The notes under the pieces: generated by a model
Databases searched by the model: none
Told to the model about the DNA's origin: nothing
Seen by the model: only the letters and a program-made list of their open reading frames with translations
Shown: positions 13,841-59,866 of the stretch, in pieces
How positions within the stretch are numbered: position 1 is the stretch's first letter
Layout: every line of letters starts with the position of its first letter
Position numbers and translations under genes: made by a program
DNA from: Escherichia coli
GTDB lineage: Bacteria; Pseudomonadota; Gammaproteobacteria; Enterobacterales; Enterobacteriaceae
Assembly: GCF_003334385.1 (NCBI RefSeq)
Contig: NZ_QOWN01000029.1
DNA length: 59,866 nt
Direction: 5' to 3' (one strand)

Positions 13841-14479
13841 TTAACTCCTTAATTCCGCAATTTCACCTGCGGTCAGATAACGGATCGGGCGGTCACCGAG
13901 AATAAAAATCAGCTTTGCCGTTTCCTCCAGCTCTTCCATATTGTTGGCGGCTTCTTGCAGGCTTTCACCGCAAACCACTGGGCCATGATTTGCCAGTAAA
14001 AAAGCCTGATTGTCTGCTGCCAGTTCCGCCAGATCCTGTGCGATGCGTTTATCGCCCGGTCGGTAATAAGGCACCAGCGGGACATTTCCCATCCGCATCA
14101 CCACGTATGGTGTGAACGGACGAATAACGTTGCTGCTGTCCAGCCCTTGCAGGCAGGAAAGCGCCGTCGACCATGTGCTGTGCAAATGCACCACCGCTTT
14201 ACAACGCGGATTGTTGCGATACAGCGCCAGATGAAAGAGCACCTCTTTCGAGGGTTTGTCACCACTTAACCATTCGCCATCCGCGGCGACTTTGGAAAGC
14301 CGCTGCGGATCGAGATTGCCCAGGCATGAACCTGTCGGTGTCGCCAGTAAATTCCCGTCAGGTAAAAGCAGCGACAGATTGCCAGCCGAACCGGTTGCAT
14401 AGCCGCGCTGAAAGAATGAACTGGCAATCCGCGTCATCTCCTCTCGCAAAGACTGCTCTACTTTTGCGAAATCGCTCAT
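13841..14479 (-). CDS. ygbL: 3-oxo-tetronate 4-phosphate decarboxylase (class II aldolase/adducin family)
   Basis: 212-aa ORF, class II aldolase fold; 4-nt overlap with ygbK. Confidence 0.85.
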
Positions 14480-15738
14480 GATAAAAACTCTCTTTGGGCT
14501 CGTGAAAAAAAGGCGTCATCACCGAAGTTGCCAGATTTAAGGGCGAGTGAGACAGGCTTATCCAGTGCGTTTACCCACGGCACGCCGGGGGAAATGGTTG
14601 GGCCAATATGAAACCCTTTTATTCCCAGGCTCTGTGTGACTACGCCGGAGGTCTCACCGCCTGCGACAATAAAGCGTGTCACGCCTTCCGCTGCTAACCG
14701 CGCCGCTAGTTGAGAAAACAGTGTTTCTACTGCCTGACTGGCTTTTTGTGCACCGTATTGCTGTTGAATTGCTGCCAATGCGTCAGTGCTGGCGGTGGCA
14801 AAAACCAGTGGAGCAAGTACACTTTCCTGGCCCAGAACCCACTCTGCCAGTTCGTGTGCATAAGCGGCCAGAGTTTCAATTGAGAGGCAGCGTGCCACAT
14901 CAACTTCACGGGCTGGTGCAATTTGACGGTAATGTGCTACCTGGCGGTTGGTCATTTGAGAGCATGAACCGGAGAGCACTACGCCGCGCCCAGCGAGCGG
15001 ACGCCCTGCTTTGCGAGCCTGGTTACCGTTTTCTTGCGCCCACTGCCGGGCCAGGCCAATCGCCAGACCAGAACCGCCCGTTACCAGTGGGGCATCGCGC
15101 AAGGCTTCTCCCTGAATTTCCAGATGGTGTTCGGTCAGCGCATCAAGCACCGCGTAGCGGTAGCCCTCTTGCTGTAAGCGAGCCAGCTCTTGACGAACGG
15201 CATCCACACCTTGTTCGAAAACATGTGCCGAAACGACGCCGCAGCGCCCTGTGGATTGCGCTTCAACCAGACGGGGAAGATAGCTGTCGGTCATGGGATT
15301 TACCGGGTGATGGCGCATCCCGGATTCGGCCAGCAGTTGATTCATTACGAACAAATACCCCTGATAAACCGTACGTCCGTTGACCGGCAGGGCCGGAGAG
15401 AAGACCGTAAACGGCGTGTCGAGAGCATCCATTAAGGCATCGGTAACCGGGCCAATATTACCTTTCGCCGTACTGTCGAAAGTAGAGCAGTATTTGAAAT
15501 AGATCTGTTTGCAACCTTGCTGTTGCAACCAGCTCAGAGCCGCCAGCGATTGCTGTGTGGCTTCAACCACTGGACAGGAGCGCGTTTTCAGGCTGATCAC
15601 CAGTGCGTCGATTGCTTCCGGCATTTTACCTGTTGGAACACCGTTAATTTGTACCGTTGGTAGACCGTTTTCCACCAGAAAACTGGCGATATCCGTCGCG
15701 CCGGTAAAATCATCGGCGATAACGCCAATCTTGATCAT
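14476..15738 (-). CDS. ygbK: 3-oxo-tetronate kinase (DUF1537 four-carbon acid sugar kinase)
   Basis: 420-aa ORF starting MIKIGVIADDFTGATD (DUF1537 signature). Confidence 0.85.
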   Translation of the reverse strand: MIKIGVIADDFTGATDIASFLVENGLPTVQINGVPTGKMPEAIDALVISLKTRSCPVVEATQQSLAALSWLQQQGCKQIYFKYCSTFDSTAKGNIGPVTDALMDALDTPFTVFSPALPVNGRTVYQGYLFVMNQLLAESGMRHHPVNPMTDSYLPRLVEAQSTGRCGVVSAHVFEQGVDAVRQELARLQQEGYRYAVLDALTEHHLEIQGEALRDAPLVTGGSGLAIGLARQWAQENGNQARKAGRPLAGRGVVLSGSCSQMTNRQVAHYRQIAPAREVDVARCLSIETLAAYAHELAEWVLGQESVLAPLVFATASTDALAAIQQQYGAQKASQAVETLFSQLAARLAAEGVTRFIVAGGETSGVVTQSLGIKGFHIGPTISPGVPWVNALDKPVSLALKSGNFGDDAFFSRAQREFLS

Positions 15739-16643
15739 GATTTCGCTCCCGGTAGAGTGATGCCAGAGAAAATCTTGATAACTGCGCTATCGTCTTCTTT
15801 CCCGTAACCCGCGTTACTGGCGCTGGTGAACATATTCAATGCTGTTGAGGCCAATGGCAGCGGGAAGTGCAGGGCTTTGGCTGTATCGGCAACCAGACCA
15901 AGATCCTTAACAAAAATATCGACGGCTGAATGCGGGGTGTAATCGCCATCCACCACATGACGCATCCGGTTTTCGAACATCCAGGAATTTCCGGCGGCAT
16001 TGGTCACGACGTCATACATCACATCCAGCGGGATCCCCGCACGGGCTGCAAGTGCCATCGCTTCGGCTCCGGCAGCAATATGTACGCCCGCTAACAACTG
16101 GTGAATAATTTTTACGGTCGAACCTAGTCCCGGTTCTGCACCTATGCGATAAACTTTTCCGGCAACGGCTTCCAGCACGGGTGCCAGTCGTTCAAAGGCA
16201 ATATCGCTACCGGAGGCCATGATAGTCATTTCACCGTTAGCGGCTTTTACTGCACCACCAGAAACTGGCGCATCCAGCATTTCCAGATCGAATCCAGCCA
16301 GAGCGGTAGCAATTTCTTGCGCATCAGCACTAGCGATAGTGGAAGAAACCATTACTGCCGTACCGGGTTTCAGATGTTGTGCAACGCCTGTTTCACCAAA
16401 CAGCACCTGTTTAACCTGGGCCGCATTGACCACCAGCACCAGCAGTGCGTCCAGTTTTTCGGCAAACGTCGCGGCGTTATCAGAAACCCCGCAAGCACCT
16501 GCCTCTTTCAACGTAGCGCAGGCATTGCTGTTCAGGTCTGCGCCCCAGGTAGAAAGACCTGCGCGGACACATGACAGTGCTGCTCCCATTCCCATTGACC
16601 CTAAGCCAACGATACCGACATGAAACTCAGATCCCGTTTTCAT
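15735..16643 (-). CDS. ygbJ: L-threonate dehydrogenase (3-hydroxyisobutyrate dehydrogenase family)
   Basis: 302-aa ORF with N-terminal Rossmann motif VGIVGLGSMG. Confidence 0.85.
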   Translation of the reverse strand: MKTGSEFHVGIVGLGSMGMGAALSCVRAGLSTWGADLNSNACATLKEAGACGVSDNAATFAEKLDALLVLVVNAAQVKQVLFGETGVAQHLKPGTAVMVSSTIASADAQEIATALAGFDLEMLDAPVSGGAVKAANGEMTIMASGSDIAFERLAPVLEAVAGKVYRIGAEPGLGSTVKIIHQLLAGVHIAAGAEAMALAARAGIPLDVMYDVVTNAAGNSWMFENRMRHVVDGDYTPHSAVDIFVKDLGLVADTAKALHFPLPLASTALNMFTSASNAGYGKEDDSAVIKIFSGITLPGAKS

Positions 16644-16838
16644 CTGCTCTCCTTGTTAATTTAAGTGATATTTTGTTTGATATTGTGAATATAAGCGCTG
16701 GAAGATAACGATATGGTGATCTGATTCACATAAATTAACATTGTGTGTTATTTTATGTGAACTAAGCGTTAGTTGCGCCGCGCACGTTTCGCAGGCAAAT
16801 AGCGTAGAATGTCAGCAGGACAAAGGAAGGAGCAAAAG

Positions 16839-17606
16839 TTGATACCCGTAGAGCGTCGCCAAATCATCCTTGAGATGGTAGCTGAAAAAGGCATTGTCAG
16901 TATTGCTGAACTAACGGACAGAATGAATGTGTCACATATGACCATTCGTCGGGATTTACAAAAACTGGAGCAGCAGGGAGCCGTTGTGCTGGTGTCCGGA
17001 GGCGTCCAGTCTCCGGGACGCGTGGCGCATGAACCTTCTCATCAGGTAAAAACTGCGCTGGCAATGACGCAAAAAGCGGCTATTGGCAAGCTGGCGGCAA
17101 GTCTTGTTCAGCCGGGAAGTTGTATCTATCTGGATGCGGGAACGACCACGTTAGCGATAGCACAGCATCTGATTCACATGGAGTCACTGACTGTGGTCAC
17201 AAACGATTTCGTTATTGCGGACTACTTGCTCGACAACAGTAATTGCACAATTATTCACACTGGCGGTGCAGTGTGTCGGGAAAACCGTTCCTGTGTCGGG
17301 GAAGCCGCTGCGACCATGCTGCGCAGCCTGATGATTGATCAGGCTTTTATTTCTGCATCGTCATGGAGTGTGCGGGGGATTTCTACGCCAGCGGAAGATA
17401 AAGTCACGGTGAAACGGGCGATTGCCAGTGCCAGCCGCCAGCGAGTTTTGGTCTGTGATGCGACGAAATATGGTCAGGTGGCGACATGGCTGGCGTTACC
17501 ATTAAGCGAGTTTGATCAGATTATTACAGACGACGGTTTGCCGGAGAGTGCCAGTCGCGCGCTGGTGAAGCAGGATCTCTCTTTGCTGGTAGCGAAAAAT
17601 GAATAA
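16839..17606 (+). CDS. ygbI: DeoR-family transcriptional regulator of the ygb tetronate cluster
   Basis: DeoR HTH (SIAELTDRMNVSHMTIRRDLQKLE). Start placed at TTG 16839, preceded by strong RBS AGGAAGGAG at 6-nt spacing; the in-frame ATG at 16809 has no RBS and would add 10 residues. Confidence 0.75.
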   Translation: MIPVERRQIILEMVAEKGIVSIAELTDRMNVSHMTIRRDLQKLEQQGAVVLVSGGVQSPGRVAHEPSHQVKTALAMTQKAAIGKLAASLVQPGSCIYLDAGTTTLAIAQHLIHMESLTVVTNDFVIADYLLDNSNCTIIHTGGAVCRENRSCVGEAAATMLRSLMIDQAFISASSWSVRGISTPAEDKVTVKRAIASASRQRVLVCDATKYGQVATWLALPLSEFDQIITDDGLPESASRALVKQDLSLLVAKNE

Positions 17607-17629
17607 TGGCCTGCAATAACACCGGGTTA

Positions 17630-17655
17630 CTCATGCTTCACAGAAGAAGCATGAG
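17630..17655. terminator. Hairpin terminator between convergent ygbI and pphB
   Basis: CTCATGCTTC-ACAGAA-GAAGCATGAG perfect 10-bp stem, followed by T-rich run on + strand. Confidence 0.6.
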
Positions 17656-59427: not shown

Positions 59428-59520
59428 GGTGAGGTGGCCGAGAGGCTGAAGGCGCTCCCCTGCTAAGGGAGTATGCGGTCAAAAGCTGCATCCGGGGTTC
59501 GAATCCCCGCCTCACCGCCA
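59428..59520 (+). tRNA. serV: tRNA-Ser (anticodon GCU), 93 nt with long variable arm
   Basis: GGTGAGGTGGCCGAGAGG...CCCCTGCTAAGGGAG...GGTTCGAATCCCCGCCTCACCGCCA; cloverleaf with anticodon GCT and encoded CCA. Confidence 0.95.
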
Positions 59521-59523
59521 TTT

Positions 59524-59600
59524 GCATCCGTAGCTCAGCTGGATAGAGTACTCGGCTACGAACCGAGCGGTCGGAGGTTCGAATCCTCCCGGATGCACCA
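59524..59600 (+). tRNA. argV: tRNA-Arg (anticodon ACG), 77 nt
   Basis: GCATCCGTAGCTCAGCTGGATAGAGTACTCGGCTACGAACCGAGCGGTCGGAGGTTCGAATCCTCCCGGATGCACCA; anticodon ACG, encoded CCA; only 3 nt after serV. Confidence 0.95.
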
Positions 59601-59798
59601 TATTCTACGTACTTTCAGCGATGAAGGTATGGAAGAGGTGGCGGTAATAACCGCAGGCACCAGGGAGGATAACGTTGCTTTAGCAACGGCCCGAAGGGCG
59701 AGCCGCAAGGCGAGTAATCCTCCCTGATGCACCATCTCTTACTTGATACGGCTTTAGTAGCGGTATCAAAAAATCTGCAGTAAAGTAAGTTTCCCGAT

Positions 59799-59866
59799 GC
59801 ATCCGTAGCTCAGCTGGATAGAGTACTCGGCTACGAACCGAGCGGTCGGAGGTTCGAATCCTCCCG
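59799..59866 (+). tRNA. tRNA-Arg (anticodon ACG), second copy, truncated by the window edge
   Basis: Identical to argV over the 68 nt present; the window ends before the last 9 nt. Confidence 0.9.

Follow-up and report, generated by a model that had tools for sequence, protein, structure and literature searches.

The ygbI locus

The window, by which is meant the whole 59,866-nt stretch of Escherichia coli DNA analysed here, carries ygbI on the plus strand, with the divergent ltnD-otnK (ygbJK) genes on one side and pphB-mutS on the other. The coding sequence as read here extends from 16839 to 17606 (+), that is, 255 codons and a stop, and it specifies a repressor of the DeoR/GlpR family that acts on the divergent ltnD-otnK operon of L-threonate/3-oxo-tetronate genes. 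The region is found in 4,588 of 5,426 complete E. coli genomes, with 96.7-100% identity among the matches listed. The window stems from a non-K-12 strain; over positions 16600-17650 (1,051 nt) it shares 99.9% identity with K-12-like strains and 100% with, for example, strain A14.

YgbI has a single ChIP-exo site, which is located between ygbI and ygbJ, and deletion of ygbI leads to derepression of ygbJKLMN, identifying the protein as the repressor of these genes (PMC8464067). Its reported abundance, in a table that PMC7567609 reprints, is only 2-6 copies per cell.

Several other features of the window and of its relatives deserve mention. The otnK (ygbK) gene is an intact ORF of 420 amino acids in the window (14476-15738, -). 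In the K-12-like genome NZ_CP053603.1, one C is missing from this gene at gene position 1148 (window about 14591), and the resulting frameshift leads to an annotated product of 388 amino acids with a different C-terminus; to judge from this comparison, the 3-oxo-tetronate kinase of K-12 may be C-terminally defective. In E. coli strain 81 (NZ_CP088131.1), the match to 16600-17650 is split into two parts and an IS1 transposase is annotated there, corresponding to an IS1A-family element between ygbI and ltnD, and this insertion could derepress or disrupt the ygbI/ltnD locus. An Rfam scan located three tRNA genes at the end of the window (59428-59866, +), the last of which is truncated where the window stops. 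The same scan, covering the whole window, gave no RNA family near ygbI, so there is no riboswitch or leader element to complicate the 5' region of the gene.

Two candidate start codons

Two codons come into consideration as the start of ygbI. The first is an in-frame ATG at 16809-16811 (+), the formerly annotated start, from which the ORF yields a protein of 265 amino acids; it is most likely unused. The second is a TTG at 16839-16841 (+), with which the RefSeq CDS start, the N-termini of orthologues and position 1 of the NCBIfam profile all coincide. Direct reading of the DNA places them in the same frame, 30 nt apart, in surroundings that read gcgTAGAATGtcagcaggacaAAGGAAGGAGcaaaagTTGatacccgtagagcgtcgc. 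The ten codons from one to the other are open in E. coli, and with the ORF ending at 17606 the TTG gives a protein of 255 amino acids.

The original prediction held that the gene begins at the TTG and not at the ATG, since a near-perfect Shine-Dalgarno sequence stands 6 nt before the former and none can be recognised before the latter. Both of these arguments are borne out. A Shine-Dalgarno sequence, AGGAAGGAG, can be read at 16824-16832 (+), and the spacer between it and TTG 16839 is the hexanucleotide CAAAAG (16833-16838). Duplex energies were calculated between the 3' tail of the 16S rRNA, ACCUCCUUA, and positions -20 to -4 of each triplet, with all 5,707 ATG, GTG and TTG triplets of the window, both strands included, as background. 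TTG 16839 scores -8.0 kcal/mol, which is among the strongest 1.3% of these start-like triplets, while ATG 16809 scores -2.6 kcal/mol, a value no better than background (41st percentile). The Shine-Dalgarno sequence upstream of the TTG is therefore far above background, and together with AGGAAGGAG this codon has the canonical make-up of a Shine-Dalgarno-led start that need not be AUG, in which AUG, GUG or UUG follows a 16S-complementary sequence at a distance of 5-9 nt.

Transcription start and promoter

The 5' end of the ygbI transcript has been mapped experimentally at +9 with respect to the old ATG, a position also given as 21 nt before the TTG (Mendoza-Vargas et al. 2009, PLoS One 4:e7526, PMC2760140). 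Converted here to window coordinates, this corresponds to 16817-16818 (+), with an ambiguity of 1 nt: counting from the ATG leads to 16817 and counting back from the TTG to 16818. In Table 2 of the same study, the sigma-70 -10 element is predicted as atagCGTAGAATgtca, which is identical to window positions 16799-16814, and no second 5' end is listed for ygbI. The -10 hexamer of this promoter (ygbIp), TAGAAT at 16805-16810 (+), has as its last two bases the A and the T of the old ATG, so that the -10 element CGTAGAAT includes these two bases of ATG 16809. As this ATG overlaps the -10 box and precedes the mapped start, it is absent from that mRNA. The TTG and its Shine-Dalgarno sequence both lie on the transcript defined by the published start, and the competing upstream codon lies off it. 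Mendoza-Vargas et al., reasoning from the transcription start and from the N-termini of orthologues retrieved with BLASTP, declared the old ORF annotation incorrect and the protein 10 amino acids shorter (PMC2760140).

By inspection, ygbIp has a good -10 box and no recognisable -35 element. A consensus promoter scan missed the mapped promoter and gave two other sites, of which one lies within the ygbI reading frame. Upstream of ATG 16809, the scan gave a promoter-like TTCACA-18-TATTTT with an upstream TG at 16725-16754 (+). As to the choice of start codon, the scan is uninformative, except that this last site is the basis of a reading in which both codons are used.

A candidate operator and an improbable dual start

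The ltnD-ygbI intergenic region contains three copies, with 0-1 mismatches, of a 15-nt half-site, TCACATAAATTAACA, at 16654-16668 (-), 16726-16740 (+) and 16746-16760 (-). Two of them form an inverted repeat with arms of 16 nt (16725-16740 and 16746-16761) that are 94% complementary and 5 nt apart, and the third is located a short distance before the start codon of ltnD. In Salmonella, Serratia, Yersinia, Dickeya, Pantoea and Entomohabitans, the corresponding intergenic regions contain this half-site as well, with 0-3 mismatches. As the operator of YgbI, which has been reported solely as a ChIP-exo peak, these repeats are a strong candidate.

A related arrangement is seen in some of the relatives. 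In Serratia (locus L005, 555-579), Dickeya (L007, 564-590) and Yersinia (L006, 546-560), an operator-like TCACAAT..TTATCA follows immediately upon a -10-like box, TAAAAT or TATAAT, just upstream of ygbI, and this suggests that the gene may be directly autoregulated at its promoter in these three genera. No site of the TCACAAT..TTATCA type is present beside the -10 box of E. coli ygbI.

The promoter-like site at 16725-16754 has to be considered together with these repeats. If it were active, the ATG would be carried on a longer transcript, and with the ten intervening codons open, initiation could be dual: mostly at the TTG, with a minor proteoform of 265 amino acids, specific to E. coli and Shigella, made from the ATG. 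However, the site falls on the conserved inverted repeat, which is probably the operator, Table 2 of PMC2760140 has no second 5' end to which it could give rise, the complementarity of the ATG leader to the 16S rRNA is at background, and the extension is not conserved beyond Escherichia and Shigella. Dual initiation is therefore considered very improbable. The same low probability applies to an evolutionary variant of this idea, according to which E. coli and Shigella would have recently gained the ATG within the -10 box, and derepression would give a longer transcript from 16725-16754 and with it a minor, extended YgbI that other Enterobacterales lack.

Annotation and conservation of the start

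The TTG start is the one found in current annotation. In all three E. coli genomes that were inspected, which are 100%, 99.9% and 96.7% identical to the window, RefSeq/PGAP places the start of the ygbI CDS at locus position 1740, equivalent to window position 16839, with a length of 768 bp and 255 amino acids; the products are WP_001300386.1 or WP_001298167.1. A length of 255 amino acids is also given for b2735 in a paper from 2021 (PMC8464067).

When the 265-aa ORF is used as the query, homologues cover at most about 96-98% of it. Among the best 120 YgbI cluster representatives, 102 start exactly at the residue aligned with the TTG (MIPVER or MIPxER), and these starts are found in Salmonella, Citrobacter, Serratia, Yersinia, Pectobacterium, Dickeya, Brenneria, Pantoea and Erwinia. 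In the same set, the N-terminus MSAGQRKEQK is kept by one cluster only, P0018, which consists of partial Shigella flexneri entries.

Starts elsewhere are seen in some further clusters. P0003 (258 amino acids, from ENA, representing a cluster of 1,184 sequences) begins with MQKLIPVER, three codons upstream of the TTG, at a position that is occupied by GAG 16830 in this window; this implies that the assembly concerned either has a variant codon there or shows an artefact of gene calling. Ten further clusters (P0092, P0094, P0099, P0102, P0104-P0106, P0109, P0111 and P0119) contain a YgbI of 190-191 amino acids that starts from MAQEPSHQIK, aligned with residue 72 of the 265-aa ORF, and lacks the whole HTH. 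The sole one with a named source is from Salmonella enterica subsp. arizonae, and in that lineage the regulator has probably been truncated or become a pseudogene.

Within the species, a 71-nt segment that includes the two candidate starts is the same in 4,343 of 4,588 E. coli genomes, and this near-invariance means that such data cannot separate coding from non-coding sequence. A comparison at the DNA level covered six loci from other genera, obtained by exact-protein look-up: Salmonella, Entomohabitans, Serratia, Yersinia, Dickeya and Pantoea. In five of the six, Yersinia being the exception, a gene for an NAD-binding dehydrogenase lies divergently upstream of ygbI, as it does in E. coli. 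The start codon of ygbI is TTG in Salmonella and Entomohabitans and GTG in the four others, and in all six it is preceded at similar spacing by a Shine-Dalgarno sequence of the AAGGAG, AGGAG or GAGG type. Between this codon and the next upstream in-frame stop, not one of the six loci has an in-frame ATG, GTG or TTG, and the stop itself is only 5 codons away in Salmonella, 3 in Yersinia and 4 in Dickeya. Salmonella and Entomohabitans have TAAAAT or TAGAAT at the equivalent of the E. coli -10 box; in Entomohabitans this box is followed by a T (TAGAATT), and as a result no ATG is formed. Conservation of the protein sets in abruptly at codon 2 (IPVER), and the DNA upstream diverges. On the basis of this comparison, UUG or GUG is the ancestral start of ygbI across the Enterobacterales.

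These observations also bear on the reading of the original genome annotation, in which translation starts solely at ATG 16809 and the protein begins with MSAGQRKEQKL. In its favour, it can be said that ATG is the commonest start codon, that the frame is open from 16809 and that the partial Shigella cluster has this N-terminus. Against this, the ATG has no Shine-Dalgarno sequence and is situated inside the -10 box, upstream of the mapped transcription start (PMC2760140), the equivalent codon is missing in six other genera, in three of which the frame meets a stop 3-5 codons before the start, and apart from P0018 the extension is covered neither by the YgbI profile nor by any homologue. Exclusive use of the ATG is contradicted by these data and is considered very improbable.

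Protein family and register

The ORF scores 481.9 bits with the NCBIfam model NF040890, the YgbI equivalog, for which the cut-off is 400, and positions 1-253 of the 253 in the model align to residues 11-263 of the 265-aa form. It has the architecture of the DeoR/GlpR family, with an N-terminal PF08220 (HTH_DeoR) followed by PF00455 (DeoRC). The former matches residues 16-69 of the 265-aa ORF with model positions 1-54 (E=7.2e-16), and the latter residues 86-241 (E=4.4e-51). The DNA-binding domain region extends from 16854 to 17015 (+) and covers residues 6-59 of the 255-aa protein. It had been foreseen that the TTG would give a DeoR-family protein of 255 amino acids with its HTH at a typical distance from the N-terminus; the ORF length and the family domains agree with the first part, and the beginning of HTH_DeoR at residue 6 with the second. 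With the models of the paralogues AgaR, SrlR, GlpR and UlaR, the alignment begins at model positions 2-5, opposite residues 12-16 of the long ORF, which puts the 255-aa form in register with the DeoR/GlpR family.

Initiation still further downstream, for example at the in-frame ATG present at 16875 (Met23 of the long ORF), which would make the TTG wrong as well, was rejected and is given practically no weight, since the residues between the TTG and this codon, IPVERRQIIL, are conserved across genera at the protein level whereas the DNA preceding the TTG diverges completely, this segment supplies the opening positions of both the HTH_DeoR and the YgbI profile, and no Shine-Dalgarno sequence precedes 16875.

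Probable initiation at the UUG

All the evidence gathered supports the start codon that had been proposed. Translation of ygbI very probably starts at UUG 16839, behind a leader of about 21 nt without an ATG, and yields a 255-aa repressor of ltnD-otnK belonging to the DeoR family. In this conclusion, the transcription start and the repression by YgbI are experimental results of others, while the strength of the Shine-Dalgarno sequence, the conservation of the start and the lack of upstream starts in relatives come from the sequence analysis presented here; that the ribosome initiates at the UUG itself is inferred.

The events can be pictured as follows. A weak sigma-70 promoter with TAGAAT (16805-16810) as its -10 box starts a transcript at about 16817-16818, with a leader of about 21 nt, GGACAAAGGAAGGAGCAAAAG, which has no ATG and carries the strong Shine-Dalgarno sequence AGGAAGGAG. 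Pairing of this sequence with the anti-Shine-Dalgarno would position the 30S subunit on UUG 16839, and initiation with fMet at this codon would give a protein of 255 amino acids with the N-terminus MIPVERRQ. The in-frame ATG would then be an accident, created by the G that happens to follow the -10 box (TAGAAT+G). The combination of a weak promoter and a poor start codon may help to keep the repressor at 2-6 copies per cell; the reported abundance seems to fit with a weak promoter and a non-AUG start. No entry for ygbI/b2735 was found in the supplements of INRI-seq and TRAINSPOTTER, which deal with translation starts and N-terminomics, and this is to be expected because YgbI is so scarce.

The TTG start is already known: it was published in 2009 (PMC2760140) and is already in the RefSeq annotation. 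The original prediction re-derived, by sound reasoning from sequence only, a correction that had been made before, and the result is not new. A correct N-terminus matters when YgbI is to be tagged, overexpressed or modelled, but the 255-aa form is already used in RefSeq and in the recent literature, and the significance beyond annotation housekeeping is small. The case nevertheless shows how a -10 box followed by a G can create a spurious in-frame ATG, and how transcription start, Shine-Dalgarno sequence and orthologue DNA together settle the question of a start codon.

Comparison with known systems

The ygbI gene of E. coli K-12 (b2735, WP_001300386.1) is the same gene with the same start, and there is no relevant difference from the one in the window. 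The description of ygbIp by Mendoza-Vargas et al. in 2009 has the same -10 element, the same shortening by 10 amino acids and the same argument from orthologue N-termini (PMC2760140). The lines of reasoning differ: the original prediction argued from the Shine-Dalgarno sequence and the published study from the transcription start and BLASTP, and the DNA comparison across six genera is added here.

Among the regulators of its family, YgbI has the HTH_DeoR and DeoRC architecture in common with AgaR, SrlR, GlpR, UlaR and DeoR. These paralogous repressors are nonetheless distinct from it, as all their models remain below their own cut-offs on the YgbI ORF.

About 3% of E. coli genes start with UUG. 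In bacterial genes initiated in this way, the weakness of the start codon is compensated by a strong Shine-Dalgarno sequence at a spacing of 5-9 nt. In this respect, ygbI is like other UUG-initiated bacterial genes, and there is nothing unusual about it.
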